Notes: generated from the sequence alone by a model not told the origin. Counted from the first letter of the stretch, positions 2,166-64,000 are shown. The stretch: 64,000 bases of DNA from an uncultured Gammaproteobacteria bacterium (GCA_963813895.1 CAWFAS010000003.1:543914-607913), one strand, 5' to 3'. Made by a program: numbers and translations.

Positions 2166-2242
2166 AGCTGGCATAGCTCAGTCGGTAGAGCAACTGATTT
2201 GTAATCAGTAGGTCCCGGGTTCGACTCCTGGTGCCAGCACCA
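2166..2242 (+). tRNA. tRNA-Thr (anticodon UGU)
   Basis: Cloverleaf readable by eye: acceptor GCTGGCA/TGCCAGC, D-arm GCTC-AGTCGGTA-GAGC, anticodon stem ACTGA/TCAGT with loop TTTGTAA (U33, anticodon TGT, A37), T-arm CCGGG/CCTGG with TTCGA, discriminator A, encoded CCA. The T-loop appears one base longer than canonical in my reading, so the count may be off by one. Confidence 0.85.
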
Positions 2243-2248
2243 GTTAAA

Positions 2249-3424
2249 TCAATGGGTTACAGCAACATCACCCCTCATTACACAAATCCCTGCGGGACTT
2301 TTGCGGGAGCTGTCATTTTTCATCAATGAATTAGCACCTGAATTAACCTCATAAAATCCTCTGATAACACTCAATGCCGGGCCATTCTGCTGCACACACA
2401 CCTTGTTAACCGCTTCAATCAGCTGAGACAATTCTGCTGCAGAATAGTGCGTCGTAATTCTTCCTGACTTATGACCCAGCAAGTCCTGACGATCCTCAAA
2501 ACTGACTCCCGCCGCACGCAATCTGCGACCAAAAGTGTGCTTGAGATCATGAACTCGCATATGCGGCAACTCTGCCCTAACCCGCGCCTTTCTCCACGCG
2601 GAGCGCAGCATCCTGTCTACTGGTTTACCTTTATAAGTAAATACATACTCAGGGTGTGTGCCACGCACTTCCTCAATCACGGATTTAGCAATACTGTTCA
2701 ATACTACTAAACGGTCATCACGATTCTTAACAACTTTACCGGGTATAAGAAATACTGAGCAATTAGGTATTTCAGGAACAGACACCTCCCACTCCCATTT
2801 AAGCAAACAGACTTCTCTATCACGGCAGCCTGTATTTACTGCAAATAAAGCCATATGCCGGAGGTGAAGCGGTAATTCCTGAAAAAACTGAGTCTGTTCT
2901 TCCCAATTAAGTGGAAAAGGCTTACGCGCATCAGGTTCTGGTAGCAACTTGATCTTAGGCGCAACCTGTAACCAGGTAAGTCCATGTTCATCCAGCCATA
3001 CACCAGCTGCCAAGTTGAGGATATGCCGAACCACTTGCAATCCATGGTTGATGGTACGCATTTTTACACCATCTTTTTTCCTGGCACTAATAAATGACTG
3101 CAAAGTCCCGATATGAACAGCCTCCAGAGTCAAATCACCTATATGCTCGTCCAACACTTTGAGATGACCTGCATCATCTCCAATGCTCGCTTTATGCTGA
3201 TTTTCCAGCAAAAATTTAGTAGCTGCCTCCCGGAATATCCGCTTGGGCCTGACTCCATAAACTTTAGCCTGCCTTATTTGCTCGATCCTTCGCGCAAGGT
3301 ACTGCTCCGCTTCTGCGAGGTCGAAAGTGCCAGTGCTCTCGCAAAGTCTGCGCCCGTGTATTTGTTTGTCGATGTGCCATAAGTCTTTACGTTTGTAGAG
3401 ACCTGGCGTTCTTTTGCGTCCCAT
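2249..3424 (-). CDS. int: P4-type tyrosine integrase (site-specific recombinase) of the genomic island
   Basis: 391 aa. C-terminal catalytic region shows R...HxxR...Y (HDLKHTFGRRL ... LLGHKSGRITTHYSAAEL). Lies 7 bp from the 3' end of tRNA-Thr, the classic island-integration arrangement. Confidence 0.9.
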   Translation of the reverse strand: MGRKRTPGLYKRKDLWHIDKQIHGRRLCESTGTFDLAEAEQYLARRIEQIRQAKVYGVRPKRIFREAATKFLLENQHKASIGDDAGHLKVLDEHIGDLTLEAVHIGTLQSFISARKKDGVKMRTINHGLQVVRHILNLAAGVWLDEHGLTWLQVAPKIKLLPEPDARKPFPLNWEEQTQFFQELPLHLRHMALFAVNTGCRDREVCLLKWEWEVSVPEIPNCSVFLIPGKVVKNRDDRLVVLNSIAKSVIEEVRGTHPEYVFTYKGKPVDRMLRSAWRKARVRAELPHMRVHDLKHTFGRRLRAAGVSFEDRQDLLGHKSGRITTHYSAAELSQLIEAVNKVCVQQNGPALSVIRGFYEVNSGANSLMKNDSSRKSPAGICVMRGDVAVTH

Positions 3425-3645
3425 AATTTTTTCCTCTCTTCAGGGGGACGCCCACTACAGGACTTATGATGATCTGCCCAGACGTCTAAATCAAGTCTGT
3501 CAAAAGCAATTGACTGCTTACCTATAGGTATCTCCGTTAAAAGCGGTCGAACTTCAGCATTAAACCGCTTTTTACTCATAGCCAAATAGGCAGGGCAATC
3601 GGGCAAGCGTATATATCGCAATGCCATTAATTCGCTAAAGCGCAT
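3274..3645 (-). CDS. possible AlpA/Xis-like HTH excisionase (prophage CP4-57 AlpA family)
   Basis: Segment ALRYIRLPDCPAYLAMSKKRF...PIGKQSIAFDRLDLDVWAD resembles the AlpA pattern (RLP...G.S..Y.......G.....W...E.D.W). The ORF overlaps the integrase 5' end by ~150 nt in another frame, so the 3' part may be spurious. Confidence 0.35.
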   Translation of the reverse strand: MRFSELMALRYIRLPDCPAYLAMSKKRFNAEVRPLLTEIPIGKQSIAFDRLDLDVWADHHKSCSGRPPEERKKLWDAKERQVSTNVKTYGTSTNKYTGADFARALALSTSQKRSSTLREGSSK

Positions 3646-4097
3646 GAAAATTCCCCATGATGATTTTTTAAAATACAAATTGTGAGTGACATTTCTGCAT
3701 ATGTGTGTGAAACAAAAATCTCACTCTCAAACCATACAAATTTATAGATGTATATTGCATTCCATAAGCTGAACATCACATTTCTTTTATTTTTAAATGG
3801 GATAAAAGTAAAAAATATTTTTATCCCACTCAAAGCTTTGCCCTTCATAAATATACTGCAATCAACTCAGCAATAACGGGAATTAATCTAAAGCATAAAC
3901 TCACTACATTTGTAGCGAATTTCTCACCTAATTTATTGTTTGGTAGGAGTCTGTTCATATTTACAAATTAAATTTGCCCGATATCATTAATAGGCGGGTA
4001 GTGGTAACAATGTTAATTGAAGCACTGCCAATTAGTGAGTGGCCATTGATTTGGCTATAGAGCGTGAACTTGGTAATTGAAAGGGGAAAGAACAGAT

Positions 4098-4121
4098 TTG
4101 GAACTTCCGCAGGAAGCTGCG
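4098..4121. other. perfect 10-bp-stem hairpin ACTTCCGCAG-GAAG-CTGCGGAAGT in the int-proximal non-coding region
   Basis: Read directly. No T-run, so not an obvious terminator. Confidence 0.4.
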
Positions 4122-4279
4122 GAAGTCATAACTCTTAGCAATTGTTAGCTCTAAGGACAGCCATTTGTTAAAAATTACACCTAGAATCCGCCGTTTCCTC
4201 AACTCCTTTGCTGTCTAGCTGTTCTTAATTTCTGATGTACACCTTAATTTGTGCCTAAGCACATTATCTGATGCACTAT

Positions 4280-4330
4280 AAAAGAATAATGGCTAGCATG
4301 GCTGACATTTTTAACAGATTGGGTGGATAC
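4280..4330 (+). repeat. ~47-bp sequence (ATAATGGCTAGCATGGCTGACATTTTTAACAGATTGGGTGGATA) repeated imperfectly at 38437-38483
   Basis: Direct comparison of the two stretches shows ~80% identity. Here it is the start of a 70-aa ORF (MASMADIFNRLGGYP...); the second copy is truncated after 13 codons. Confidence 0.6.
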
Positions 4331-5515
4331 CCCCCCCAAAGTGAAGATGCGCAAAGGTTATGGATGCTTAATATATCTTTGATAAGCAAAAAAAACAGGG
4401 ATGGACGAGGAAGAATGATGCAGCAATGGGCAGATTATTTGGATGGATTGAAATTTCAACTAAAGGAGTCATCCTCTGTCTGACCAAATAAAATAGAGCT
4501 CTATAATAGACGCCTAACTTTTTGGTCGGCACTTGAGAATTGCAGCGAAGACCAATAAGATTTAAAACCAACGAATACAACGCGCATTCTGCCGCCAAAA
4601 TTTCCAATTTATCGACCATCGTTAATAAGATTTGTGAACAAAATCAATTGCCCGCTTTGATTAATTGTGAAGATAATCTAATTATTTTGATATCTGCTGT
4701 CCCACCAACCAATTCCGTACTTTAGCAACGGTTTGTTTTTCAGTGTAATTACCAGGTTAAGGAAAAAATTATTCCTAAGGTTATTCACGCAATCTGTAGA
4801 CAACATCAAAATATTTCATAACCTGCCAAAAGCGAGTCTCAAGTTAGTAACTTAATCTTCAGGCTTATGAAGTTCTTTCCTATATATCGGTATGGCGGGA
4901 GGAGCTTGGATTGCTAATTTTATTATAGAGCCAACTATTGTTACCACAATCACCTCAATACAACCATTGATAATAATAACTTCTTTTAATTTTGTTGTTG
5001 TCAAAACCATCATTAAGTCACCAAAATAGTTTTTAATTTCATTATTTTTTTACTTCCAGTGAGGCAAATCGCTCTGGTGATATTGAATCGTCTAAAAGTG
5101 GTTGCCAGAGACTTCCAGATTTTTTATCGAAATTTTCATCAATAATAATATCGCCATCTTGTTTTTCTTGATTATCTTCTTCAGATTTATCTATTTTCAT
5201 CAGCTTAATAATAAAATTCTCTAAACATTAATTAACCATAATCTTTTATTTTGTCATGGCTAATTAAAAATAAAAATGTAATTTTTGGGAAAAATTACCT
5301 TATTTTTCTGAAAAATATTTGCACACAGTGACAAAATCATCGATCGTTAAATTATTTTTATAGTTACAGAGTAAAAAATCAGAGTTAGAAAAATTTTTAA
5401 ATATAAAGGAGATAATTATTAATAGTTATTGAGAAATAAACGATGAAATAATGCTTGTGGGGAGTATTTGGTTGATGAAATGATTTTGGGATTTTTATTG
5501 TGAGAGAGGGTGAAT

Positions 5516-6172
5516 TTATTCACTATCCAATAGAGGAATCAATCCTAATGGCCCTTTTTCAGAGTCAAAAAGAATGTCAATAAGCCGTTCAATTTTTTTA
5601 ACTCCTAATTTTTTCATGCCATGATATTTTTTGTTTGCAACTGTTTTAGGGCTGATGCATAAACCTTCTGAAATTTCTTCGTGTGTTTTACCCTGAGAAA
5701 CCATTAAAAGTACTTGATGCTCAATTTCTGTTATATTACGAAGATGGCCGGAAATATTTTTATCCATAAGATATTGCAATAATTGATAGGCCAAATCTGG
5801 TTGCACATAAACGTTTCCATGATACACATTTTTAACGGCTTCCGTCCCAGAAAAATTGGAATTTTTACTCATGATTCCTTTGGCGGGCGTGTTAAGCAGG
5901 CGACTCAAAGAAAATAAGTGGCGACTTGCTGATATGAAAATAATTTTAGAATCTGGAGCTTTTCTGCAGATAGAACGACATACTTGGATTCCTGGCATGT
6001 CGGGCAAATATAGATCAAGAATAATAACATCAGGCTGTGTTTCAAGCACCAACTTGATTCCGCTGGCGCCATCGCATGCTTCGCCAATGATTTCAATTTC
6101 ATCATCAGCCAAAAAACTTCTAACACCGAGGCGGGATATTTTATCATCATCTATAATTACTACTTTTATCAT
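5516..6172 (-). CDS. response regulator, receiver domain + LuxR/GerE-type HTH (NarL/FixJ family), orphan
   Basis: N-terminal VVIIDDD...ILDLYLPDM receiver motifs. C-terminal LuxR-type HTH (EISEGLCISPKTVANKKYHGMKKLGV). No adjacent kinase. Confidence 0.7.
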   Translation of the reverse strand: MIKVVIIDDDKISRLGVRSFLADDEIEIIGEACDGASGIKLVLETQPDVIILDLYLPDMPGIQVCRSICRKAPDSKIIFISASRHLFSLSRLLNTPAKGIMSKNSNFSGTEAVKNVYHGNVYVQPDLAYQLLQYLMDKNISGHLRNITEIEHQVLLMVSQGKTHEEISEGLCISPKTVANKKYHGMKKLGVKKIERLIDILFDSEKGPLGLIPLLDSE

Positions 6173-6214
6173 TGTTTATACTACGCTATAAATTTAATAA
6201 CTTAATATTTGGTT

Positions 6215-6529
6215 TTATTTAATTTCACACCTATTATCAACTTTTTTGTTTCTTCGACTGTGGCGTTTTATAAATAATTCTGTAAAGTCTATCATTTCTT
6301 GACTAGGGCTATCATTGCCTAGTTCTTCTAACAATTGAATTGCAAGATAATTAAAGTATTGCGATTTTGACATATTAACTGGCCTAGGAGCATTTTGTTG
6401 CGCTACGCCATAGTATTTAATAAATTTTAGCTCTATATTGCGCTTATCCGCTATCTCGGGCATTAAATTTCTGGTTATTTCCGCTATATTTTTTTCCTTA
6501 GAGTTAATAAATAAATATGTCTCTGGCAT
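6215..6529 (-). CDS. small hypothetical protein, paralog of 6587-6907
   Basis: 104-aa ORF. Shares a ~40-aa C-terminal block with the neighbouring 106-aa ORF (..NMSKS.YF...AI..LE..GN..PSQ.EID..EL.IKR.S.R), i.e. a tandem duplication. Confidence 0.45.
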   Translation of the reverse strand: MPETYLFINSKEKNIAEITRNLMPEIADKRNIELKFIKYYGVAQQNAPRPVNMSKSQYFNYLAIQLLEELGNDSPSQEMIDFTELFIKRHSRRNKKVDNRCEIK

Positions 6530-6586
6530 CTAACGCAATACACTCATATAATTTTGCAAAGGCTTTAAGATAATTAATGATAAATT

Positions 6587-6907
6587 CTAGGCAGCTTTAG
6601 AAACCGCACTAATGCCCGATGCTGTCCGGCATGCCTGCATAAAAATAGGTTTAGTTGACTTTCGCAGGCTATAGCGCTTAATGTTCAATTCGACCATATC
6701 AATTTCAACTTGCGATGGAAACTTGTTGCCCATTTGTTCTAATATCGAAATAGCTGTACAAGTAAAATAAATTGATTTACTCATATTCTGCGGTTTTGGT
6801 TGCTGCTGTAGAATATTTAAGAAATGCTTCATTAATACACTTTCGAATTCCGCAGAATTTTTAGTTATTGCTCCAATTTGCTTGGCTTGTAGATTCAGAC
6901 TTTTCAT
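6587..6907 (-). CDS. small hypothetical protein, paralog of 6215-6529
   Basis: See 6215-6529. Confidence 0.45.
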   Translation of the reverse strand: MKSLNLQAKQIGAITKNSAEFESVLMKHFLNILQQQPKPQNMSKSIYFTCTAISILEQMGNKFPSQVEIDMVELNIKRYSLRKSTKPIFMQACRTASGISAVSKAA

Positions 6908-7105
6908 AATGACCTCTTAACTAATTTTGCTAATTTTCCAGGATTGTAAAACTCAAGAAACATCCTTACTTCTGGCTTAAGATAGCCTTAAGTGCTGATA
7001 TGATCGCTTATATTTGGTTAGAAAAAAATTAAGAGATTTGCCTGATTTTAAAACATTCTTTTTTTGCGCATAAAAAAATTAGGATTTTATGGAGAAAGGA
7101 AGCCC

Positions 7106-8539
7106 ATGATTAATAACAAAAAACAGCCGCGCGGCTTATATCTATTATCTTTTTTAGAGATATGGGATAGGTTTGGATATTATGGCATTCAGTCGATATT
7201 GGTTCTTTTTTTGACTAAAACCATGCTAATGGCTGATGATTCTGCTTATGCTCTGTATGGTATTTATACAGCATTGGCGTTCAGCACACCTTTATTAGGC
7301 GGATACATTGCAGACCGTTTTTTGGGGTACCGAAAGGCAGTAGCATATGGATTGACATTGCTAACTATTGGTAATGCCTTATTATTTATCGAAGGAGCGC
7401 ATACTTTTTATATAGGGTTGTCTCTGGTTATCTGTGGCATAGGTCTTTTTAAAGCCAATAATGCCACACTTCTCGGTTCTCTTTATGAAGCGGGCGATAT
7501 CAAAAAAGAAAAAGGTTTTACTTTGTTTTATATGGGAATGAATATAGGAGCTACATTAGGTCCTGTTGTTTTTGGATTAGCTGCACTTTATTTTAACTGG
7601 AAATATGGCTTCATGCTAAGCGCTTTGGCTAGCGGCTGCAGTCTTGTTTTGTTTGTATTCTTTCGTCAGCTATACAATTCCATTAAACCAAAGACATCTA
7701 AAAAATATCCATTACGATTCTGCGTGGCTTTAATTTGTGCTGTCTTGGGTATATCAGGCCTATTCTATTTTCCGGAGGTATTCAAAGATATACTCTGGCT
7801 CATAGGCATTGTTAGTTTAATTTACTTATTTACAGCTGCGGCAAAACACAGCAAATTTGAAAGAAAATGTATACTGCTGCTGGTTATTTTAGATCTGTTT
7901 GCAATTTTCTTTTTCGCTTGCCAGATACAGATAGGCAGCTCATTAACACTTTTTATAGATCGCCTGGTGAATAAACAGGTATTTGCCTGGACTATTCCCA
8001 CGGCAGCGTTCTCTGCCTTACAACCGATATGTGTTATTATTTCTGCTCCCCTACTGGAACCCATTTGGAATTCTTTGGGACGTTTATTACCTATTTATTC
8101 AGTTATATTACGAGTATTCTTAGGACTGGCATTAGGCGGTCTTAGCTTTGTTTTATTTGCATTATCCGCCGATAGTACTGCATGGCACACTACTATCAAT
8201 TATCCATTAATTGGTGTAGTGGCAGGGAATTTTGTTTTAGGCGCTGGAGAATTATGCATAGGTCCCATTATTATGGCAGCTGTATCTCGCTTTGCCCCTG
8301 AAAGATTACGAGGGCAGCTAATGGGATTCTGGTTTTTATCAATAGCTTTTGCCAGCTATCTGGGCAGTATACTTGCCCAATTTGCAGGGACAGCCAACAT
8401 CAAGTTGACCAACAATAGTACCATTTATTTTCACTCATTCTTAAAAACTAGCCTTGTTACGCTGAGCACCGCATTACTTCTGCTTATTTTCCTGGCTGTA
8501 GTGCGCCGTTTTCCGCTTGCTCAGATAACATCGAAATAA
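7106..8539 (+). CDS. POT/PTR2-family proton-dependent di/tripeptide transporter (MFS)
   Basis: POT signature FLEIWDRFGYYGIQSILVLFLT near the N-terminus and about 12-14 hydrophobic segments. A Shine-Dalgarno GGAGAAAGGAAG lies before the ATG at 7106 (ORF track gives 7064). Confidence 0.85.
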   Translation: MINNKKQPRGLYLLSFLEIWDRFGYYGIQSILVLFLTKTMLMADDSAYALYGIYTALAFSTPLLGGYIADRFLGYRKAVAYGLTLLTIGNALLFIEGAHTFYIGLSLVICGIGLFKANNATLLGSLYEAGDIKKEKGFTLFYMGMNIGATLGPVVFGLAALYFNWKYGFMLSALASGCSLVLFVFFRQLYNSIKPKTSKKYPLRFCVALICAVLGISGLFYFPEVFKDILWLIGIVSLIYLFTAAAKHSKFERKCILLLVILDLFAIFFFACQIQIGSSLTLFIDRLVNKQVFAWTIPTAAFSALQPICVIISAPLLEPIWNSLGRLLPIYSVILRVFLGLALGGLSFVLFALSADSTAWHTTINYPLIGVVAGNFVLGAGELCIGPIIMAAVSRFAPERLRGQLMGFWFLSIAFASYLGSILAQFAGTANIKLTNNSTIYFHSFLKTSLVTLSTALLLLIFLAVVRRFPLAQITSK

Positions 8540-10172
8540 AGCGATTTAATTCCGCTTCCCCCTGCTCAAAACCATGATAACTTGCATATTCATGGGTATT
8601 AATATTCAATTTACTCCATTCAGTCAAAAAAAGCGTCATTGCTTTTGGCTCTATATATAAGCGTTTTGCTTTTTGATAAAGACCAGTTAAACGTAAGGCA
8701 TCTAAAAACCACCAAATATCTTGACTAGATGGATAAGCACCAATGGCGTCAGCATTGTTATTGACCACCAAAAAATCAAATCGTATAGCTAAATCCATTA
8801 ATGCTAAGAATGCCTCCAGTGATGAATCATTTTCTTGCAGCCAAGTTTCCATAGCTTGAGTGCTTAATAATTTATGATTAAAACGAAATTTATTAGCATA
8901 ATGTGCGACTTCAATCTGGTCAGGGATCAAGCCAATTTGCGTGGCTTTTAGATCAATTCTATGAAAAAGAGTAGCAATGGTATACATAATATTATATTTA
9001 TCAATATCTGACTGTTTAAATGCGCTACATACGACAGATTTATTTTTTTCAGGAGAATACTGTAAGCCAATGCGTTTTTTGTAGTAGCTATAATAACCTG
9101 ATAATTGCATCAGATAGACCAAGTAATCCATGCTACTTTTTTCATTATCGCTATAATTTAAACAATTAAGTCGTGTGATAAATTGCTTTAGATCTTTATC
9201 AAAACAATCATTTTCCATTTGCCAGCTTTGCTGTGTGACAATATCTCCCAAACCAAATATACCCTCTGATTGATTTCTTTCTCTTTGAGCAATATTGTAG
9301 GTTATCGTCAATAGGTAGGCCAAACGTTGTGTAAGTAGGTAATTTTTTCCAAATAATCGCGCAATCAAAGCGACTTTTTCTTGAATAGGCAACCAATCCT
9401 TATAAACGATAAAAGGCTGGCACTGCATTGATCGTTGTAGAGTACGAAAATAAATAGTGCGCTCAAGATGGGGTTTATTTTGAGATGGAACAACAGCAGT
9501 ATTTGAATTTCTGATTAACTCCAATAATTCGGCTGCATCCAAAGCTTTTTGATCTATGTAACCTCCCTGAGCTAGCCAGGTTATTAAGCGTTTAATCTCT
9601 TCTTCCTTGAATTTATCAATGTTGCTTAAACAAATTTCTTTCAATGTACGTCGTTGATAAAATGTTTGTTTGGTTAGGTAAATTAAGGTATCTACTGTTT
9701 CCTGATTGACAATAGACTGAGCAAGTGCCGACTCCAGTGTCGCTCGTATATTTACCATAGGGTCTGTAATAACTTGGTAACCTGTAGCTTCAGTACCATG
9801 TAATATAGCCACTTCATCATCATCCGTAAGCTTGCCTGACGCATAATCATAAAAAACTTTTCCAACTCCCCGCATACCATAGCGCTCTAATTCCGCAGCT
9901 CTTAATGCACCCATGCTGGAAGCACCGAATACTTTAATACCTTGTTCCAACGCATATAATATTTCTTTATGCCAGACCGCTGCTGTTTTTTCAAACACGC
10001 CATCAATAATTAAGATGACCTCCGGTTTTAATCGCATGACACGCAAAATATCGCCACATTTTACTGGGGGCAAATAAAACGCTTCAGGCAATATCTCTTG
10101 AGCTTTAGTTAATGGTAACGATGGGCCTAGGAAGACGAATATATTGCAGCTAGGAGGATTTTTAGTATTCAC
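8484..10172 (-). CDS. TfuA-like domain protein with ~330-aa C-terminal extension of unknown function
   Basis: N-terminal ~230 aa match the TfuA core (IFVFLGPSLP...CGDILR...LIIDGVFEKTAAVWHKEILYALEQGIKVFGASSMGALRAAEL..YGM.GVG). It is immediately downstream of, and overlaps by 4 nt, a YcaO gene. Confidence 0.75.
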   Translation of the reverse strand: MNTKNPPSCNIFVFLGPSLPLTKAQEILPEAFYLPPVKCGDILRVMRLKPEVILIIDGVFEKTAAVWHKEILYALEQGIKVFGASSMGALRAAELERYGMRGVGKVFYDYASGKLTDDDEVAILHGTEATGYQVITDPMVNIRATLESALAQSIVNQETVDTLIYLTKQTFYQRRTLKEICLSNIDKFKEEEIKRLITWLAQGGYIDQKALDAAELLELIRNSNTAVVPSQNKPHLERTIYFRTLQRSMQCQPFIVYKDWLPIQEKVALIARLFGKNYLLTQRLAYLLTITYNIAQRERNQSEGIFGLGDIVTQQSWQMENDCFDKDLKQFITRLNCLNYSDNEKSSMDYLVYLMQLSGYYSYYKKRIGLQYSPEKNKSVVCSAFKQSDIDKYNIMYTIATLFHRIDLKATQIGLIPDQIEVAHYANKFRFNHKLLSTQAMETWLQENDSSLEAFLALMDLAIRFDFLVVNNNADAIGAYPSSQDIWWFLDALRLTGLYQKAKRLYIEPKAMTLFLTEWSKLNINTHEYASYHGFEQGEAELNRFISMLSEQAENGALQPGK

Positions 10173-11341: not shown

Positions 11342-11606
11342 CCACCAGGGGTAAAAACAAGGTTATAACATCATCGCTTTCGAGAAAAAGTTCTTGTTGG
11401 GATGAAGGATGTATTTGCTTGCCATTTAAATAGATGCTTATAAAAGGGCGTATATTGTGCTTGTCATCAAAAAGATACTGCTCTATTTCAGGAAAATCCT
11501 TAATTAAAGCAGCTCTAACATCTTTTAAGTGATCACAATTAACAATAATCTTAGATTGATGGTTAGTAAACTTAGTTAATACATCTGGTATAAGAATTGT
11601 CGGCAT
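11334..11606 (-). CDS. ThiS/MoaD-like ubiquitin-fold sulfur-carrier protein ending in Gly-Gly
   Basis: 90-aa ORF with C-terminus ...ITLFLPLVGG-stop. Beta-grasp-like length. Overlaps the YcaO start by 8 nt. Confidence 0.65.
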   Translation of the reverse strand: MPTILIPDVLTKFTNHQSKIIVNCDHLKDVRAALIKDFPEIEQYLFDDKHNIRPFISIYLNGKQIHPSSQQELFLESDDVITLFLPLVGG

Positions 11607-11765
11607 AAGTGAGGCAATATTCTGTTGATAAACCTAAAATTAAATCAGGTCTAACAATTGGAACTAAGCGGGCGATACCGAGTAATTTGTTAAAAAAATC
11701 CTTTGATGACCTTGTCATTTCACAAGATGGCTGCCTTGCCGAACAAAAACTCGTTACAAGCCAAC

Positions 11766-56586: not shown

Positions 56587-57448
56587 ATGGTTTAGTGGAA
56601 ATTAAAAATAAAGTGGTACTGTCACCTGGTTTTTGACCGGTAGGTTTTAAATGAATGCGCGGATATAGTGTGGCTGCCTGCCAATCGCCGCAGAAATCAC
56701 TGGCTATTAATGTAGTGTCATGCGGATATTTATTGCGTAGCTCTATTGCCGTAACGTATAACCCATTGAGTAGCCAAGAGGCTTCAGGATGCGCTAATAC
56801 TTTGTCGCCATAGACTAAGTCGGTTACCCACGATGTGGTATGCATCGGCGTGCGGGTAAACTCCAAATCTTGATTTAATAACCGTTGTGGGGCATACAAT
56901 TGTTGCCAGGCAAAACGGACAGCATTGACATAATCATCAGCTGAAATGGTTTGCGTATTGTTACCCGTTGTTGGATTATTTGCCGTACCCTTGATTTGTT
57001 GTTTAGCCACTGCTATTGATGTAGTCTTTTCATTTTTAGGTAAAGAAATCGTGCGTGTATTGACTGATGCTTGATTGTCAGTTGCAATGTCCAGCAAAAT
57101 AATTTGCTGAGAGTTTTTTAAGGTCACATATAAGCGCGTTTTGGCGAATGCTTGATGCGCAGTCAAATATAGATTTTTGTCATTGTTGATAATGCGTAGT
57201 TGATCTGTGGTTAAGCTGCCGTTTAAATCCACTTGTACCGGTTCTGGAAAAAGTAAACGCTTTTCTTTGTCGACAGGTAATTCAATGGTAATAGGATCGC
57301 CTTTCCAAATTAATGGTGCATTGTCATCATCCGTGGGCAAATATTGCTGCAACTTCTGTATCTGATTATCAGACAACGGTAATGTTGTGGCTGAAAACGC
57401 GGACAAACCTACACTAAATATTAATAGAGACATCAATAACCGTTTCAC
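56549..57448 (-). CDS. secreted T4SS protein (VirB9-like position)
   Basis: Signal peptide, 299 aa, placed by gene order. Confidence 0.4.
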   Translation of the reverse strand: MKRLLMSLLIFSVGLSAFSATTLPLSDNQIQKLQQYLPTDDDNAPLIWKGDPITIELPVDKEKRLLFPEPVQVDLNGSLTTDQLRIINNDKNLYLTAHQAFAKTRLYVTLKNSQQIILLDIATDNQASVNTRTISLPKNEKTTSIAVAKQQIKGTANNPTTGNNTQTISADDYVNAVRFAWQQLYAPQRLLNQDLEFTRTPMHTTSWVTDLVYGDKVLAHPEASWLLNGLYVTAIELRNKYPHDTTLIASDFCGDWQAATLYPRIHLKPTGQKPGDSTTLFLISTKPFGDVLGVCHGSA

Positions 57449-57458
57449 TTGCTATCTC

Positions 57459-58085
57459 CTATATGTACGTCTTTAAGCGTTGCGGTGGCGCAATAAATCC
57501 GCTGATTGCTAACCCATAAGGGTTTAAGCTGTTGGATACATCGTGACGAATCACTTTAAGCGGGTATAAAATTTCCACGTCTTTCACTAGCTGATTGTTT
57601 TTGTATTCCATCAATCGGACTTTGAGATCGACTTCCCAAGCATCTCTGCTTAATTTTTTGACAACTGTGGTATCAAAAGCACTGCCCGAGGCACCTTGAA
57701 TAAACCTCTGTCGCTGAATTTGCCCGCCGGTTAATAAATCTTTGTATTCTTGTAAAAGTTCAGCTTGGAACTCGGGTGTTAAATAAGCTGAATAACTATG
57801 AAGATTTTTCTGGTAGTTTTTACTGCCGTCGTCTGGCCAGTAATTCAATTCTTGCCAGACTTCATAAGTAAAACTGTAAATTAAGGGTGCCGGAATTTCG
57901 CTGACATTAATCGTTGCGCCATTAGAAATATCGGGCGGTACATAAATTCGTAATCGTGACGGTGCGGTCATCCATCCGACACAAAACAAGGCACATAACA
58001 GGAATAAGAGAACAATGAATCGGCCTTGCGCATGAATTAACGCTCGGTCACGATCTTCTTTTTTCCAGGCATTAAACAGCATCAC
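57459..58085 (-). CDS. bitopic T4SS inner-membrane protein (208 aa)
   Basis: Single N-terminal TM helix. Order-based. Confidence 0.4.
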   Translation of the reverse strand: MMLFNAWKKEDRDRALIHAQGRFIVLLFLLCALFCVGWMTAPSRLRIYVPPDISNGATINVSEIPAPLIYSFTYEVWQELNYWPDDGSKNYQKNLHSYSAYLTPEFQAELLQEYKDLLTGGQIQRQRFIQGASGSAFDTTVVKKLSRDAWEVDLKVRLMEYKNNQLVKDVEILYPLKVIRHDVSNSLNPYGLAISGFIAPPQRLKTYI

Positions 58086-58447
58086 GATTCTCTCCTAACT
58101 GACCACCGCCCATTGCGGGTAATAAGCCGGGTTTTCCAGATAAAACTTAATATAGAGGTCCCCAGCTTTTTAAAAAATAATTGCCGATAATAACCATAGG
58201 GTTTGCCGTATTTTAGCCGTTGCAAGCGGCCTAATAAAAAACGGGTAGCATGGACTAATGAGATCAGAGTCAACGCACAACCAATGGACGCATACCCTAT
58301 AAACAGCCAGGTTAATAATGAAAATATGAAACCACCCAGCACCAGATACCCACAACTGACTACCAATAACTCGAACAACGTGCAGTCTTTATAAATAGGC
58401 ATTTTGTGATTGACATGGTTGAGCAGCATCTGGATTATTTCCATCAA
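58082..58447 (-). CDS. small 2-TM membrane protein (TraL-like position)
   Basis: 121 aa, two hydrophobic helices. Confidence 0.4.
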   Translation of the reverse strand: MMEIIQMLLNHVNHKMPIYKDCTLFELLVVSCGYLVLGGFIFSLLTWLFIGYASIGCALTLISLVHATRFLLGRLQRLKYGKPYGYYRQLFFKKLGTSILSFIWKTRLITRNGRWSVRRES

Positions 58448-58809
58448 GTTTGTTGTGGAATAATCAGATAACCGCCATACAGTAACCCAGCACCAATAGC
58501 AGCAGCAGCTACCGCAACAGCGGAGTGCTTAAAGAAATGTCCTATATCCTGTCTTTCTTGTGATGTATGATAGGCTTTGAAAATTCCAAACGCAGCTCCC
58601 GCTACGATCATTGTCCCCAGAACAATTAAAGCGTAACTTAATGTCTTGTATGACAGAGTTCCGCCGACATCAATCCAGTCAGTAGTACCATCTTTGGCAA
58701 TGTCACTATCTGGAGGCTTTGGTAAATCAGCCCAAACTGGCAAAGTCACTGCATAAGCAGTAAGTAAATAAAATCCTTGCTTGATTCGATGCAAACTGCG
58801 TTTCAACAT
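58444..58809 (-). CDS. small membrane protein, possible pilin-like subunit
   Basis: 121 aa, signal-like N-terminus and two C-terminal helices. Confidence 0.4.
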   Translation of the reverse strand: MLKRSLHRIKQGFYLLTAYAVTLPVWADLPKPPDSDIAKDGTTDWIDVGGTLSYKTLSYALIVLGTMIVAGAAFGIFKAYHTSQERQDIGHFFKHSAVAVAAAAIGAGLLYGGYLIIPQQT

Positions 58810-58827
58810 ATTTTTCTCCTGTAAAAA

Positions 58828-59070
58828 TTAACTGATAAACACTAACGTCACGGCGATCGCAACGATAAACATAATCCGTAACAACTGGCGGTGTGCATCA
58901 AACATATCCACGTCATGATGGCGAAAATGGTGGATTTTGCTGTAAACACAAGCAGCTGCCCAAATAAAAACCAAAACCAATAAAATACTGCGCACCGTTA
59001 AACTGAGTTCACTGGCTGATACACCGGCAGCTACTTGTAATGCCTCAATTGCGCTGGACGTTGCAGTCAT
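58828..59070 (-). CDS. 80-aa 2-TM membrane protein
   Basis: Two hydrophobic helices. Confidence 0.35.
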   Translation of the reverse strand: MTATSSAIEALQVAAGVSASELSLTVRSILLVLVFIWAAACVYSKIHHFRHHDVDMFDAHRQLLRIMFIVAIAVTLVFIS

Positions 59071-59438
59071 GAATGGGAATCCTGTGAGAGATTATTTTTA
59101 TCAAGATAATCTCCGCGAATCACATTAAATGACCTTGGTTCCACTGCAGCGTGATCTAGCTTTTGTCGGATCCCAGCTTTGATAGTCTGTACATCGTCTA
59201 ATAATCCGTTGTGCAATTGCCCTTTAGCATCGTGCCAAACAGTATAATGAAATTGAATGCGTAAATTTTTCGGCTGCTCTCGCTCTGCTGCTAAAATCAG
59301 CGGGGTCATGGCATTAAGCTGATTGAGCAGTTGCACCAAATAGCTACGTTCTTGTTCTGGTGAGGCAAAAGCACTACTGACCGCACAACACAGAGTGAAT
59401 ACCAGAATTTTGCTGATTTTATTCACAATCCACCTCAA
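59067..59438 (-). CDS. RAQPRD-family-like secreted ICE protein
   Basis: Signal peptide. Motif region LILAAEREQPKNLRIQF is a variant of the RAQPRD signature. Right size (123 aa) and position. Confidence 0.45.
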   Translation of the reverse strand: MRWIVNKISKILVFTLCCAVSSAFASPEQERSYLVQLLNQLNAMTPLILAAEREQPKNLRIQFHYTVWHDAKGQLHNGLLDDVQTIKAGIRQKLDHAAVEPRSFNVIRGDYLDKNNLSQDSHS

Positions 59439-60163
59439 ACATATTTCTTAAAAGACTTAGCACCAAACTGTGTGATCAATCCCAAAATCATCGCTGATGG
59501 CACAAGAAACCATTGCGGTGATACAGGCCAGGGCAATACCAAATACATCAATAGCGGGACGAAAAACCAAAAACTGCTGCCTCTTTTTAATTCGTGGAAT
59601 AACAAAGTGCTTTCACGCGCACCTTGAAATTTACGGATATCGCGCTGCACCAAGCCATCCACTAATCCCAAACCCAAACACAACAGAAAAAGAGGCAGCG
59701 CTAATAAAAACATAAAAACCCTGGTTAGAATGATTCCAGTTACACCCCAAAGCAGCGGCAGAATCTCGCTGCGGATGGTTTGCCAAACCGGTTGCAGCGG
59801 CTTTTTGAGCCGCGGCGTTTGAACATTCAGTCGTTGCATTTCCTGCTGCAGAGAAGCGAAATCCTGGTTTAACTGTGTCTTCGGATTTATCAACTGCAGT
59901 AATTGCTGCAAGCGCGAATAATTATTTTGATTACCAAATAAAGTATGTTGTTTTAATAGGCGGATATTGGTATCCAAAATGGCATTCATTGCTGGATAAC
60001 CCATTTCATTTTTGTGAACGATGCGGTAAATCCCAAAACCTAATAGCAATATCAGCCAAGCAAACACACTCATTAAAATCAGATGCACCCCAATTGAAAG
60101 TAACATCCCTAACAATCCACGGCGTTTGCGCTGAGTTTTTTCCGGGGCTTTGCTGACCGCCAT
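59435..60163 (-). CDS. polytopic membrane ICE protein (242 aa)
   Basis: 4 TM helices. Order-based. Confidence 0.4.
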   Translation of the reverse strand: MAVSKAPEKTQRKRRGLLGMLLSIGVHLILMSVFAWLILLLGFGIYRIVHKNEMGYPAMNAILDTNIRLLKQHTLFGNQNNYSRLQQLLQLINPKTQLNQDFASLQQEMQRLNVQTPRLKKPLQPVWQTIRSEILPLLWGVTGIILTRVFMFLLALPLFLLCLGLGLVDGLVQRDIRKFQGARESTLLFHELKRGSSFWFFVPLLMYLVLPWPVSPQWFLVPSAMILGLITQFGAKSFKKYV

Positions 60164-60951
60164 TACAAATCCCAGACAGAGACAGCTCGAGATTGGCCAT
60201 TCCTTACCAGTAATAAAAAGGGGGGTTTTAAATCCGCCGGTCTATTTTTAAAACGTTCATCGTCATGGTTGAGGGTAATTCGTCCGCTACTTACTAAATT
60301 GCTCGGTACGTTGTTAACCATTGCCCAGTGGCGAATGGCGTTATTATCTGTGCTGCCGGTGCAATAAATATCTAGGCTAATTTGGGTATTGGATTGCAGT
60401 AAACCCAGCAGTTTGGGTAACACTGCCAAATCCAATCCTTGTTGAATATTTTCAAATAAGGCCAGCCGATCACCTGGCTGCAGTGCACTCTGATTTTTAC
60501 TATGCGTGCTCATGGGGTTAAATACCGATTTATCAAAATCTTTAATCATGGGTTCGTCAGGATATAAGCGGCGCATGGCCATAAACACCGCCTGATTGAA
60601 AGCCAATTCACGCGCCACTTTGTCATGCTCTTGCCGGGCAACGATTTCAGCAAAATGTCGTTGCTCTTCTGATGTTTCCGCGCGCATACCTAGTACCGCC
60701 GGTGGCGTCATATGTGCATACCATAGGCCGTCGGCACCCTGCATCCACTGTTTATACTGCTCCCATTCCTGCTCGGTTAATCTCCAATCCTGCGCAGATC
60801 CAGCAGTGGTAGTTTTTTCCTGTGTATTCTCTGTCACGGTGGATTGTTCTTGTGAATTAGCGATATCATCTGCCTGAATCGATGCATTCCAACTCAAAAC
60901 AAAGACAAAAATTCCTGCACACAGATAGATTATTTTTTTACAAGGTTTCAT
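60163..60951 (-). CDS. secreted ICE protein (262 aa)
   Basis: Signal peptide. Conserved among GI-type T4SS clusters by position. Confidence 0.4.
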   Translation of the reverse strand: MKPCKKIIYLCAGIFVFVLSWNASIQADDIANSQEQSTVTENTQEKTTTAGSAQDWRLTEQEWEQYKQWMQGADGLWYAHMTPPAVLGMRAETSEEQRHFAEIVARQEHDKVARELAFNQAVFMAMRRLYPDEPMIKDFDKSVFNPMSTHSKNQSALQPGDRLALFENIQQGLDLAVLPKLLGLLQSNTQISLDIYCTGSTDNNAIRHWAMVNNVPSNLVSSGRITLNHDDERFKNRPADLKPPFLLLVRNGQSRAVSVWDL

Positions 60952-61631
60952 GCCGTCTGCTCTGAGAGTATGATTTTCACGTACTGGCCTCGAGCATTAG
61001 CTAACTCGACAGTTTGCGTATCATAGTCTGCACTGACTATTTTCCAGGTGGCTAAGGAATCACCTATACCTAAAGGCGCGATGTGATGGTTATAGTCAAC
61101 GGAAATAAAAGGCTGTTCGGAGATCATGTCTAACGACACCACATGAAACGGTAATTTTTTAGCATCTATATATTTTTTACTGATTGATTGCGCTGCCATA
61201 GTTTGTGATAGGTCGCCTAAGTTTGTCTGCATATCGGATAATTGAGCTGATAACTTTTGGATGTCGGTATTTTTTGCAGTCTCTGCGACTTCTTTTTCGA
61301 TGTCGGTTAACTCGGCATCTAGACGGCCCAGAGCAGTTTTCAACTCCGATGGGTTAGATGATGTGGAGGAAAGTTGTTGCACTTGATTGTGTAGGTCACT
61401 GAGTTCACTCAAGATCAACAGACTGCGTTTGTTAGTTATACTGGTTGTTTGATCGGCACCGTGGTTCTCATGCATTACGTAAAATAACGTAGTCAAAGAA
61501 AGTAGCGCACTGAAAAGTAATGTGAAAAAAAGTCCATAATTTTTTATTGAATCGCTGCAATGCCATTGTTTGTCTTTCAACAACTGGAGCAGGGATTTTA
61601 TTTTGACTGATTCATTAGCGGGAGAGTTCAT
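60948..61631 (-). CDS. bitopic ICE protein with coiled coil (227 aa)
   Basis: TM helix then a long heptad region. Confidence 0.4.
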   Translation of the reverse strand: MNSPANESVKIKSLLQLLKDKQWHCSDSIKNYGLFFTLLFSALLSLTTLFYVMHENHGADQTTSITNKRSLLILSELSDLHNQVQQLSSTSSNPSELKTALGRLDAELTDIEKEVAETAKNTDIQKLSAQLSDMQTNLGDLSQTMAAQSISKKYIDAKKLPFHVVSLDMISEQPFISVDYNHHIAPLGIGDSLATWKIVSADYDTQTVELANARGQYVKIILSEQTA

Positions 61632-61637
61632 ACGACC

Positions 61638-62072
61638 TTATCCTTTATGCCAGGTAATATCCGGTTTCAGCTTAAAGTTGATTTCACGATTGAGAGGATC
61701 CTGCATCAAAGTAAATGCAGGACCTGCCAGGGTGATTAATCCGTCTTTTAAACTCATGGGGCCAAAATTACGGTCAACTAAGGGCAACGGTTTTCGTAGC
61801 GTATTTTTCATGGCTACGCTTTGTCTGGCATCGTCAACCAGGCTATAGCCGCTATATCGCAACAAGTAATTCATGGCGTCGCCAATGGTTTGAACTGCTT
61901 GGGGAAAACGCACCTGGATGATTTGTGATAACAAATTGACTTGTGCGCTGCTTGGTTTATTATCGACCGAAAGGTAACGTCCTACTGTCATATTACCCGT
62001 TTGTGCAAAGGCAGAAGATGTAACAACAATGAGCATCATGGCTACTATTCCCAATTTATTTTTGTATCGCAT
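61638..62072 (-). CDS. PilL-like ICE lipoprotein/secreted protein
   Basis: Signal peptide. 144 aa. First structural gene after the LuxR-type regulator, as pilL is in PFGI-1-class clusters. Confidence 0.45.
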   Translation of the reverse strand: MRYKNKLGIVAMMLIVVTSSAFAQTGNMTVGRYLSVDNKPSSAQVNLLSQIIQVRFPQAVQTIGDAMNYLLRYSGYSLVDDARQSVAMKNTLRKPLPLVDRNFGPMSLKDGLITLAGPAFTLMQDPLNREINFKLKPDITWHKG

Positions 62073-62195
62073 AAATTTCTCGTTGAAATTTTTTTAGATA
62101 ATTAAAAAATTTAATAAACAAATTTTAAGAGTTATTTTTGATAATGAGAATACCCCAGATCAGGGGACAAGAATGGCCATGAAGAGAAGATCATT

Positions 62196-62585
62196 TTATT
62201 TTTTCTTATCGGAAATTTGTAAATATCCTCGTTGCAAGGAGATAAAAAATGCCTGTGTTCTATTTCTAACCTGTAGCTTTTTATGTATTCGCTTTAAGTA
62301 AGATGATAGGGTATTAGAGGTGATATTTAACAAGGTGGCGCATTGTTCAGGACTTTTACCTGTAGCTAATAAAATCAGGCATAGCATTTCCCTTATACTT
62401 AAAGGATTATTTTTAACTATGCCTGGAATGATACCTAACTCTTCAGCCAGAATGTCCTGCAAAGCAGCTACTGTGTTCTCAGGTAGTAGTTTGTGATGTG
62501 CAACTTCATTACCTCCAAATATGGCAATTATTTTTTGTTCAAAAGTGATGTTATCCTTTGGCGCCTGTATAATAAATTGCTCCAT
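62196..62585 (-). CDS. LuxR/GerE-family HTH transcriptional regulator (no receiver domain)
   Basis: C-terminal LSIREMLCLILLATGKSPEQCATLLNITSNTLSSYLKRIHKKL. Confidence 0.65.
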   Translation of the reverse strand: MEQFIIQAPKDNITFEQKIIAIFGGNEVAHHKLLPENTVAALQDILAEELGIIPGIVKNNPLSIREMLCLILLATGKSPEQCATLLNITSNTLSSYLKRIHKKLQVRNRTQAFFISLQRGYLQISDKKK

Positions 62586-62588
62586 GAT

Positions 62589-63266
62589 TTAACTCTTTTT
62601 TTCAGGTAGGTTAGAAACTTCTTGAGATGACAAATCCTGCAAAGCAGATGAGTCATTTCCCAATAATAAGACATCTCTATGTATCAGCGCATTAGCATCA
62701 GTGCCTAGCTGATACACCTGATGGGCTTTTTTCTTGTCTCCAATCAATACCGGCGGTGGCTCTTCATAACCTTGTAAACTATTTTGCCAAGCTAGACGAC
62801 CACTTAATTTTTTTGGATATTCTGCAGGTGGATGTAGCACATAAGCTGCGTAAAGTTTTTTAAATTCATGGCCTTTAAATTTCAATTCATCCAAGGTCGT
62901 TTCACACAAGCATATCCATCCTCCTAAATCATCAATAACGCGATGCAGAATCGCGTCGTCGAATACTAGGGAATCATAACTGCCTATACACTTTATAATC
63001 TTCAGGACATGGGTCCAGGCTTTCAGAGCTTGGGTTTCAGTGCTGCCCTCGATATAACGCAACACTTCCGTCGCCTGCGGCATGAAATGCCCTTTGTCAG
63101 GATTTTGAGTGGTGCAGGCATACAAGGCTTTTTTCACCTCAGCAAATTCAAACCGTTCCAATGTTTGCCAGTAGCGTTCAATGGCAAACTCATTTAAGGA
63201 TTGGCCATAGGACAGACTTAAAGCCATTAGCAATTCTACAAATTCCGGCATTTCTTCGCTTTGCAT
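62589..63266 (-). CDS. hypothetical ICE protein (225 aa)
   Basis: ORF co-directional with the regulator. Not assigned. Confidence 0.45.
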   Translation of the reverse strand: MQSEEMPEFVELLMALSLSYGQSLNEFAIERYWQTLERFEFAEVKKALYACTTQNPDKGHFMPQATEVLRYIEGSTETQALKAWTHVLKIIKCIGSYDSLVFDDAILHRVIDDLGGWICLCETTLDELKFKGHEFKKLYAAYVLHPPAEYPKKLSGRLAWQNSLQGYEEPPPVLIGDKKKAHQVYQLGTDANALIHRDVLLLGNDSSALQDLSSQEVSNLPEKKS

Positions 63267-64000
63267 CAGGTTTTTTCTCCCGCTATTTTTTTGTTGAGCC
63301 AGTTTTTGCCGGCATTGACGTTTTCTCGCAGCAGCTTGTCGGATGTGTTCGGTGGGCAGGGTGGATTGTGATGATGGCGCATGAACCGTTCAATCTGGTC
63401 GCTATCCCGCAGTATCACATGCAGCCCATCGTATCGTTGGCCACGATCATTATCCCCCATGTTATGCGGAGTTTTAGCGCAACCACTGATGGCATCACAC
63501 AACTGCGCTACGGAGTAGCCGCGTTGCAATGCCTGTGAAATTAAGCGCTGGCGTTTGGCATCCAGTAGCGCTTGTGAATGGTTGAGGGTGGTTTTCCAGA
63601 AATTAAAAACCTGGAAGACCTGGGCAGAACCCACCGGCCTCCGTCGCGCTGGCGCGACAATGTTTCGGTTACTCCCCAGTTCCCCCTGTTTTTCCATTTC
63701 CTTTTCCACATCCAGCTCCAGTTCCACTTCCCGTTCCACTTCCACTTCCACTTCCACTTCCACTTCCAGCGATGCAGGCATCTGCATTTCACGTGCAGGC
63801 ATGTGCATTGCATGTGCTTGCATATGCATTTCAGGGTGGAGCGGACTTAGATCTTTTTGATTGCTTGTATCTTGCTGATTTATTTTGAAATTTTCTGTTA
63901 CCGCAGAGGATTTCATTGAGAGTACGGTTAAAGGTTCAGGTGTTACAGAGTTTGATATTGGCATTGCAGGAGTCTGTTCGTGCAATGCAGAATATTGCAT
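63266..64000 (-). CDS. partial CDS (N-terminus outside window) with acidic (EV)n / His-Met-rich low-complexity repeats and a basic C-terminal domain
   Basis: Open to the window edge. Contains EVEVEVEVEVEREVELELDVEKE encoded by tandem hexamers. Confidence 0.5.
   Translation of the reverse strand: MQYSALHEQTPAMPISNSVTPEPLTVLSMKSSAVTENFKINQQDTSNQKDLSPLHPEMHMQAHAMHMPAREMQMPASLEVEVEVEVEVEREVELELDVEKEMEKQGELGSNRNIVAPARRRPVGSAQVFQVFNFWKTTLNHSQALLDAKRQRLISQALQRGYSVAQLCDAISGCAKTPHNMGDNDRGQRYDGLHVILRDSDQIERFMRHHHNPPCPPNTSDKLLRENVNAGKNWLNKKIAGEKT
63690..63840. repeat. tandem hexanucleotide repeat (CACTTC x ~6, then degenerate TGCATGTGC-type units) inside the partial CDS
   Basis: ccacttccacttccacttccacttccacttcc read directly. 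In-frame, coding (EV)n. Confidence 0.7.

Follow-up and report, generated by a model that had tools for sequence, protein, structure and literature searches.

The 64,000-nucleotide (nt) stretch of DNA analysed here, which we call the window (GCA_963813895.1 CAWFAS010000003.1:543914-607913, from an uncultured Gammaproteobacteria bacterium), is probably occupied by one integrative and conjugative element (ICE) of at least 62 kb that encodes a genomic-island-type (GI-type) type IV secretion system (T4SS) of mating-pair-formation class G (MPF_G), and whose interior is inverted relative to its integrase (int) and excisionase-like (xis-like) genes. The element is a genuine ICE-type island of an ordinary kind, with a complete MPF_G T4SS in an uncommon layout, and, as judged from its sequence, the window also holds the relaxase-type gene of this lineage, which is of the motif-less MOBH3 kind. 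The lineage is little described, and has so far been encountered in assemblies of uncultured Gammaproteobacteria. Its conserved backbone lies on the minus strand, starts outside the window past 64 kb and reaches to about 30.3 kb, in the order phage O-like replication initiator (RepO), DUF6475 and LuxR genes; pilL and about 16 mating-pair-formation (MPF) genes; traG and traD; the TraI_2-family and PFL_4669/AcaB-like genes; ssb; and a leading-region-like block with radC, followed by a convergent pair of genes for a helix-turn-helix (HTH) protein and a tyrosine recombinase.

As a matter of annotation, an ICE of a known class is unsurprising in itself, although ICEs of the GI type are important vehicles for adaptive and defence genes. 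The wider interest lies in transfer of the kind described for the Legionella genomic islands (LGIs), which proceeds without a recognisable relaxase and has been an open point since 2013. In the window and its relatives, an architecture with traD in last place occurs together with a conserved motif-less TraI_2 gene, the usual partition/replication module proves replaceable by a phage-like initiator module, and the system is accompanied by a conserved recombinase-hairpin module and by a structured element that precedes ssb and radC, so that concrete candidates for the origin of transfer (oriT), the relaxase and early gene expression result.

The transfer operon and the relaxase-family gene beside it

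An earlier note on this DNA had described a complete T4SS block in a particular gene order, and we confirmed that block and its listed order at 45.6-62.1 kb on the minus strand (coordinates of all features are given in Table 1). In window order, the MPF operon begins with a 122-aa membrane open reading frame (ORF), TraG_N, TIGR03755, TIGR03756 (TraU-like) and TraC/VirB4 (TIGR03744); continues through a TIGR03751 lipoprotein, TIGR03752 (VirB10/TraB-like), TIGR03749, TIGR03746 and TIGR03750; and ends with a 121-aa ORF (in a pilin-like position), TIGR03758, RAQPRD, TIGR03747, TIGR03759, a 227-aa ORF and PilL (TIGR03748), next to which stands a small LuxR/GerE protein. Fourteen ICE-specific NCBIfam families were matched within the T4SS, ten of them above their curated cut-offs (TIGR03750, TIGR03758, RAQPRD and TIGR03747 scored below theirs), and TraG_N was matched by Pfam; TraC falls in the PFL_4706 family (TIGR03744, 956 bits). 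Published typing assigns a system to MPF_G on the basis of a PFL_4706-type VirB4/TraC plus at least four specific genes (p31 PilL, p35 TraD, p41, p44, p51, p52; Guglielmini 2011, PMC3158045), and here TIGR03744 is accompanied by PilL, TraD, TIGR03746, TIGR03751, TIGR03755 and TIGR03756, all above the NCBIfam cut-offs. The ORFs agree in length with their homologues in related loci (designated by L numbers), with no frameshift evident, and the T4SS is colinear with those of L004, L005 and L002 at 46-89% identity. The closest retrievable relative is L004 (GCA_035546635.1), in which PilL is 84% and the T4SS proteins are 67-89% identical. Because of the family matches and the intact ORF lengths, we consider both the observation and the MPF_G assignment sound, and on sequence grounds we take this to be an intact GI-type system. 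The earlier proposal of one long operon, based on overlapping stop and start codons, fits the spacing observed, as the majority of adjacent ORFs either overlap, by 1-8 nt, or are separated by less than 25 nt. A scan for sigma-70 promoters and terminators over 42.8-48.3 kb gave promoters no better than background, and a search of PLSDB returned no close plasmid relative, the best TraD match being 48% identical (Pantoea) and the best TraI_2 match about 25%.

To place this layout, we read the canonical MPF_G order from the annotated Pantoea plasmid pROTS050421_D (L086, NZ_CP134732.1), which runs TraI ... DnaB-PI, ParB, DUF2857, STY4528, PFL_4669, TopoIII, STY4534 and PilL; then DUF2275, TIGR03759, SLT, an unnamed gene, a restriction-endonuclease-like (REase-like) gene, TraD, TIGR03747, RAQPRD, 03758, 03745, 03750 and PFL_4703; and finally 03749, 03752, 03751, TraC, ..., 03757, 03756, 03755, an unnamed gene and TraG_N. 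The window shares with this plasmid, and through it with PFGI-1, ICEclc, SPI-7 and ICEHin1056, the same TIGR037xx families, a PFGI-1-class TraD, PFL_4669, PilL and RAQPRD, with T4SS proteins 25-48% identical and a TraI that in both cases lacks the HHH and HD motifs. It departs from the canonical order in that TIGR03747 directly follows TIGR03759, traD having moved from between these two genes to the end of the operon, after traG_N; in that its TraI is 374 aa long and adjoins traD, whereas canonical TraI proteins are at least 546 aa and distant from traD; and in that PFL_4669 comes after traI rather than within a replication module. Neither the SLT and REase-like genes nor TIGR03757 (the PFL_4711 family) and TIGR03745 were detected in the window, and tblastn with the L086 proteins found no homologue of DnaB-PI, ParB, DUF2857, STY4528, TopoIII, STY4534 or UvrD in the 64 kb. 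Upstream of pilL, L004 likewise lacks the replication/partition module, and L005 has no more of it than a ParA-like gene at a distance of 9 kb. The earlier note's placement in the PFGI-1/ICEclc (MPF_G) class is thus broadly right as regards the T4SS but not the layout, with its terminal traD and no DnaB-PI/ParB/TopoIII module, and the PFL_4711-to-PFL_4693 order that it proposed applies only approximately, given the displaced traD and the undetected TIGR03757, TIGR03745 and SLT genes. It had further stated that relaxase and partition genes were lacking; no parA/parB/dnaB/topB module was indeed found anywhere in the window, but the ORF beside traD is a TraI_2/MobH homologue by three family matches, albeit of a motif-less type.

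The order with traD last matches that of the Legionella LGIs, to which we liken the window on the basis of their published description. In these islands the T4SS genes run from lgiA (pilL) first to lgiT (traD) last, LGI-1 lies at a tRNA-Thr, and no relaxase was found, although Legionella LpcGI-2 conjugates without a recognised one (Wee et al. 2013, PMC3864950). Against that description, the window shows the same lgiA-T-like order beside a tRNA: pilL comes first and traD last, traC, a traU-like gene, the homologue of TIGR03755 and traG immediately precede traD, ssb occurs in LGI-1 as well, and both lack a canonical parA/dnaB/parB module and a canonical relaxase. The two differ in that the window has no lvrRABC (with its CsrA-like LvrC) upstream of pilL, where the O-like initiator, DUF6475 and small LuxR genes stand instead, in that a TraI_2-family gene follows traD (none has been reported for LGIs), and in gene number (about 18 in the window versus 20). 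No Legionella-named protein appeared among the homologues found in our searches.

The relaxase-family ORF begins 21 nt downstream of traD and is followed by the PFL_4669/AcaB-like gene and then ssb. It matches Pfam TraI_2 (E 2e-10), TIGR03760 'ICE relaxase, PFGI-1 class' (E 1e-28; 100.4 bits, below the cut-off of 161.4) and NF041494 'MobH family relaxase' (E 2e-24, also below its curated cut-off). We aligned it with 17 homologues and with the canonical 572-aa protein P0040, which carries SESHHH...H and VHDAGK. All typical MOBH1/2 motifs (alt-3H HHH, H117 and HD...K) are missing from the window protein, and across the short TraI_2 family there is no His or Asp at any alt-3H, H117 or HD position, these positions being variable. 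Cleavage by the single MOBH relaxase that has been characterised depends on these motifs (PMC6736028).

By sequence the protein matches PDB 3KQ5 of Coxiella burnetii (E 4e-6); an AlphaFold model (pLDDT 82) aligns with 3KQ5 over its whole length in Foldseek (E 4e-12), and the C-terminal domain of the model matches 2IPQ, the TraI_2_C domain of SPI-7 STY4665. Both 3KQ5 and 2IPQ belong to the motif-less 'MOBH3' clade of Heilers et al. (PMC6736028), and the window protein shows the features of that type, namely a TraI_2 N-terminal domain and a TraI_2_C-like C-terminal domain by fold, with no alt-3H or HD motif that would bind metal. It differs from 3KQ5 in its very short linker, in the location of its gene within a complete T4SS operon, and in sequence, with 17% identity in the structural alignment. 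The position after traD is kept in L002 (49% identity), L003 (36%) and L088 (54%), and among the short TraI_2 copies, which are 36-55% identical across elements, Q57, R85, E97 and W106-T-Y108 are invariant. The TraI of the Pantoea plasmid L086 (546 aa; NZ_CP134732.1 2379-4019) likewise has neither HHH nor HD motifs, and MOB-suite types that plasmid as 'non-mobilizable' despite its full MPF_G set, which suggests that relaxase typing systematically overlooks TraI proteins without the motifs.

The edges of the window and the number of elements

At the left edge, genes of chromosomal appearance (lppC/lpoA-like and yraN-like) are followed by tRNA-Thr(TGT), the sole tRNA found in the window by ARAGORN and Rfam, whose 3' end reads GGTTCGACTCCTGGTGCCAGCACCA. 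The integrase abuts this 3' end, as the earlier note had stated, with 6 nt between its stop codon and the tRNA. It is 64% identical to the integrase that stands beside a tRNA-Lys in L004, and L006, a metagenomic contig, also has a homologue. The small xis-like ORF (48% identical to its L004 counterpart and 54% to that of L006) is read in a different frame from the integrase gene and shares about 150 nt with the 5' end of that gene, in the window as in L004 and L006; by its position it is a candidate excisionase or directionality factor. Beyond it lies the remnant of a 296-aa HTH/ParB-like gene, recovered by tblastn in a 2.6-kb sub-search (sum E 2e-8) as three segments that lie in different frames and contain in-frame stops. 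In relatives this gene sits between xis-int and the replication initiator, and it is intact in L004 and L006.

We looked for a second copy of the tRNA 3' end within the window, as the earlier note had advised, by three methods: a 25-mer searched with as many as 3 mismatches tolerated gave no hit, no exact match of at least 12 nt occurs elsewhere in the window, and blastn-short against the window gave chance matches of at most 11 nt only. A generic search of the window for a tRNA T-arm motif returned only tRNA-Thr itself and one intron sequence. The island is not closed within the window and, as the note had also proposed, continues past 64000, where the RepO gene runs beyond the edge.

The content of the right edge bears on what may follow it. 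The RepO ORF shows 70% identity over residues 129-377 of an L004 protein of 380 aa; that protein matches phrog_16167 'replication initiation protein' (E 1e-62), and the PHROG families of this kind that it hits include O-like ones. L004 reads, in order, chromosomal-looking genes, tRNA-Lys(CTT), int (minus strand), the xis-like gene (minus), the 296-aa HTH/ParB-like gene (plus), RepO, DUF6475, GerE, PilL and the T4SS; thus nothing other than the 296-aa gene, RepO, DUF6475 and LuxR separates pilL from the xis-int-tRNA end, and L006 has the same contiguous int-xis/296-RepO-DUF6475 module. Since the initiator module of L004 abuts xis-int and the tRNA, the right end of the element in the window is probably a few kb beyond 64000. 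The relaxase, topB and parA/parB genes that the earlier note expected there find no support in L004 and L006, where the RepO module lies directly at the xis-int end, and a parA/dnaB/parB/topB module at the right end is unlikely. The RepO-DUF6475-GerE trio (7640-9863 in L004) also occurs at 8878-11053 in L001, an unrelated conjugative element with a VirD4-type coupling protein, SLT and KilA-N, which carries the only relative (44%) found in a scan of genome contigs; because it is shared with this different conjugative-element type, the trio is portable. Relatives of DUF6475 occur widely in metagenomes, at 121 confirmed loci, but none of the 80 metagenome loci returned carries PilL, the relatives are mostly 32-44% identical, and only L006 was informative. 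We note in passing that DUF6475, LuxR and the ORF upstream of them were also considered as pure regulators, and that this was rejected, the upstream ORF being the phage O-like initiator.

Taken together, we favour one element over two. In this arrangement, tRNA-Thr, the integrase and the xis-like ORF would form the left boundary of a single element, whose interior would have been inverted with a breakpoint at the junction between the 296-aa gene and RepO; the element would also have acquired accessory DNA (about 26 kb), defence genes and a pair of group II introns. The integrase and the xis-like ORF resemble those of L004, the 296-aa remnant lies in the expected place and orientation next to int-xis, and accessory-region genes at 6.2-6.9, 12-13.3 and 20-22.3 kb, which encode the paralogous small proteins, the 443-aa protein, the histidine kinase and the response regulator, have homologues beside related ICEs in L088 and L090. 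The RepO-to-T4SS part, for its part, lies 60 kb from the remnant, in the opposite orientation.

Several observations weigh against a single, functional element. The T4SS has the opposite orientation to that seen in L004 and L006 with respect to int-xis, from which 40 kb separate it; an integrase lies 4-7 kb from pilL in both relatives with known upstream sequence (L004 and L005); the 296-aa gene beside the integrase is a decayed fragment; nucleotide similarity to L088 ends at 30333, exactly at the insertion of group II intron 2 and beside the recombinase module, which has the look of an element's end; attR was not seen in the 64-kb window, and the right end lies outside it; the DUF3275, DUF6094 methylase and SNF2 helicase genes are remnants, so the element may be decaying; and TraI_2 has none of the residues on which cleavage depends in the characterised MOBH relaxase (PMC6736028).

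The second to fourth of these points, together with the splitting in the window of an int-xis/296-RepO-DUF6475 block that is contiguous in L004 and L006, also speak for the presence of two related elements, the tRNA-Thr, integrase, xis-like ORF and 296-aa remnant being the relic of an older L004-type ICE, and the T4SS-bearing ICE being separate from it or nested in it in the opposite orientation. Such a second element might have its own 296-xis-int set and tRNA just past 64000, or might use the 320-aa recombinase as its integrase and have its left end at about 30.3 kb. We consider this arrangement possible but the less probable of the two: the window contains no tRNA-Thr attR and no other tRNA-like fragment, accessory genes beyond the recombinase reappear near related ICEs in L088 and L090, the OTT_1508 deaminase family, among others, lies on one side of it in some relatives and on the other side elsewhere, and there is no clearly essential chromosomal gene at 3.7-30 kb. 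The recombinase at 31.4 kb was separately considered as a firm ICE boundary and rejected, as relatives have kinase/regulator and deaminase genes on both sides of it.

Transfer of the element

If the single element is mobile, its transfer might proceed as follows. The integrase, with the xis-like protein, would excise the element at the tRNA-Thr att sites; the TraI_2-family protein, probably together with the PFL_4669/AcaB-like protein, would process the DNA at an oriT; TraD would couple the DNA to the MPF_G channel; ssb and radC would be expressed early in the recipient; and maintenance of the circular form may fall to the O-like initiator.

It is conceivable, although rather unlikely, that the element is no longer self-transmissible, with an intact T4SS, a catalytically dead TraI_2 and a decaying backbone, so that it would be immobile or would need a relaxase in trans. 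The variable, non-His/Asp residues at all alt-3H, H117 and HD positions of the short TraI_2 family fit this explanation, as do the suggestion of Heilers et al. that motif-less MOBH3 proteins may serve another function (PMC6736028), the decay of three backbone genes to pseudogenes, the insertion of two introns and of a recombinase trio, and the failure of Wee et al. to find a relaxase in the LGIs (PMC3864950). On the other hand, the short TraI_2 keeps its position and its invariant residues despite only 36-55% identity, which argues for selection; the TraI of the canonical MPF_G plasmid L086 is also motif-less; LpcGI-2 conjugates without a recognised relaxase (PMC3864950); and every T4SS ORF is intact.

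A bolder proposal takes the absence of motifs at face value, such that DNA transfer in this lineage, and with it in the 'relaxase-less' LGIs, would need no HD/3H or HUH relaxase and would be initiated either by the motif-less TraI_2 or by the conserved HTH-recombinase pair acting on the hairpin at 30.8 kb in the manner of MpsA or TcpM, while structured elements of about 160 nt would drive early expression from the incoming strand. We regard this as a long shot. The structured elements, one upstream of ssb and a second copy upstream of radC, recur at the equivalent place in two distant relatives, L002 (12368-12520) and L088 (14210-14367); each is predicted to form three hairpins, with compensatory changes at 10 predicted pairs, and no Rfam family matches them. 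They could be an RNA leader, or a leading-region promoter that acts on single-stranded DNA.

The version in which the recombinase is the real DNA-processing enzyme, with the hairpin as oriT and TraI_2 as an accessory protein, is more doubtful still. Its model is MpsA of SGI1 (PMC6414798), alongside TcpM of pCW3, both of them atypical relaxases that resemble tyrosine recombinases: SGI1 uses a protein of tyrosine-recombinase fold with a small DNA-binding partner (MpsA/MpsB) and an oriT, has a GC-rich inverted repeat nearby, and lacks a conventional relaxase, whereas the element in the window has a T4SS, a type IV coupling protein and a TraI_2 of its own, and the likeness is one of analogy only. 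The catalytic residues of the recombinase, read from its sequence, are complete, its family is 65-97% identical across 37 proteins, and on three contigs it occurs together with the short TraI_2. The module has the same layout in L088, L089 and L090; its hairpin (z = -7) is followed by T7, lies 55 nt upstream of the HTH-recombinase operon, is conserved in L088 and shows compensatory inner-stem changes in L087. In addition, the module stands at the promoter-distal end of the ssb/radC/ArdA block, and ssb, radC and (in L090) ardA all point towards it, a geometry that would be expected of leading-region genes relative to an oriT. Nevertheless, a hairpin with a T-run could be a plain terminator or operator, the recombinase may equally be a resolvase or a second integrase, and no homologue of it was detected on the contigs of L002/L005, L003 or L004.

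Finally, takeover of the T4SS for protein secretion, as a 'MOB-less' system of the sort common in Legionellales (PMC3158045), is very improbable: although canonical relaxase motifs are missing and relatives occur in genomes with eukaryote-like leucine-rich-repeat, kinase and ankyrin proteins, the context is that of an ICE throughout (integrase at a tRNA, coupling protein, TraI_2, ssb, radC and replication initiator), and near-identical modules are spread over unrelated contigs.

Leading-region-like block and accessory region

The remaining features of the window are listed with those discussed above in Table 1.

Table 1. Features of the 64-kb window, in order of position.
Feature	Coordinates	Strand	Basis and remarks
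tRNA-Thr (anticodon TGT), intact	2167..2242	+	ARAGORN; Rfam tRNA, 74.8 bits; presumed attachment site, attL side
Tyrosine integrase, 391 aa	2249..3424	-	Pfam PF00589, E 3.5e-17; reads towards the tRNA
Small xis-like ORF	3274..3678	-	phrog_13517, E 1.6e-23; same position in L004, L006
Frameshifted remnant of 296-aa HTH/ParB-like gene, residues 147-208	3953..4133	+	tblastn with L004 296-aa protein
Mosaic accessory region	4134..30332		Pfam, Rfam
LuxR-type response regulators	5516-6172 and 15322-15966		
Two paralogous small ORFs, 104 and 106 aa	6215-6529, 6587-6907		45-59% homologue beside related ICE in L088
POT transporter	7064-8539		
TfuA-YcaO-ThiS-like cluster	8484-11606		Followed by unknown 443-aa protein
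ThiF-rhodanese E1-like enzyme	13969-15087		
Group II intron 1, intact	about 16360-18900		
DUF3050, PAS histidine kinase, response regulator	19144-22293		Followed by nitronate monooxygenase, HU
Group II intron 2	about 24631-30330		Split by three tandem tyrosine recombinases, 25680-28894
Conserved module (small ORF, hairpin, HTH protein, tyrosine recombinase)	30260..32340	+	
Small ORF of module	30260-30502	-	
Perfect 17-3-17 GC-rich hairpin	30791-30827		z = -7.0 on folding
HTH protein, 171 aa	30882-31397	+	
Tyrosine recombinase, 320 aa	31378-32340	+	Pfam Phage_integrase, E 1.3e-3; divergent
Leading-region-like block	32597..43680	-	Pfam, PADLOC, tblastn with L002 proteins
RadC	32597-33256	-	
Structured non-coding element, second copy, upstream of radC	33324-33488	-	About 77% identity to ssb copy
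PifA-like KAP NTPase	35210-37441	-	PADLOC, E 5e-66
SNF2 helicase remnant, last 78 codons	37512-37744	-	tblastn with L002 protein
PDC-S35 TIR protein	38917-40122	+	PADLOC, E 3e-72
DUF6094 methylase remnant, 108 codons over three frames	40166-40490	-	tblastn with L002 protein
DUF2958	40603-40938	-	Followed by 216-aa ORF
DUF3275 remnant, first 33 codons	41884-41982	-	tblastn with L002 protein; followed by two 119-aa ORFs
SSB	42953-43315	-	
Structured non-coding element, about 160 nt, upstream of ssb	43520-43680	-	
PFL_4669 family/AcaB-like protein	43718..44416	-	TIGR03761, 115.4 bits vs cut-off 110.7; Pfam AcaB, E 1e-38
Short TraI_2 (MOBH-family) protein, 374 aa	44428..45552	-	Pfam, NCBIfam, PDB 3KQ5; candidate relaxase/relaxosome protein
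Coupling protein TraD (type IV)	45574..47604	-	TIGR03754, 830.9 bits vs cut-off 647.6
MPF_G mating-pair-formation operon	47604..62072	-	NCBIfam, Pfam, synteny and length agreement with L004, L005, L002
Regulatory/replication module	62196..64000	-	NCBIfam, Pfam, L004 comparison
Small LuxR/GerE HTH protein	62196-62585	-	
DUF6475	62589-63266	-	phrog_10105
Phage O-like replication initiator (RepO), C-terminal two-thirds	63266 to beyond 64000	-	About 384 nt outside window

Within the leading-region-like block, the equivalent position in L002 is taken by an intact DUF6094 methylase gene, a 200-aa gene and an SNF2 helicase gene, of which the window keeps only the two ends of the block as pseudogene fragments. 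The TIR gene fills the gap left by the lost block, and the PifA-like gene adjoins it.

The accessory region presumably belongs to the same mobile unit as the ICE. The cluster at 8484-15087 includes a 562-aa TfuA protein and the 443-aa protein, whose homologue beside the related ICE in L088 is 30% identical; from its gene content it looks like a sulfur-relay/thioamidation pathway, or one for ribosomally synthesized and post-translationally modified peptides, carried as cargo. Group II intron 1, searched against plasmids, matched nothing beyond generic reverse transcriptases. In intron 2, the reverse transcriptase is split into an N-terminal part (28977-29762) and a C-terminal part (24771-25517) by an insertion of the 'recombinase in trio' type.

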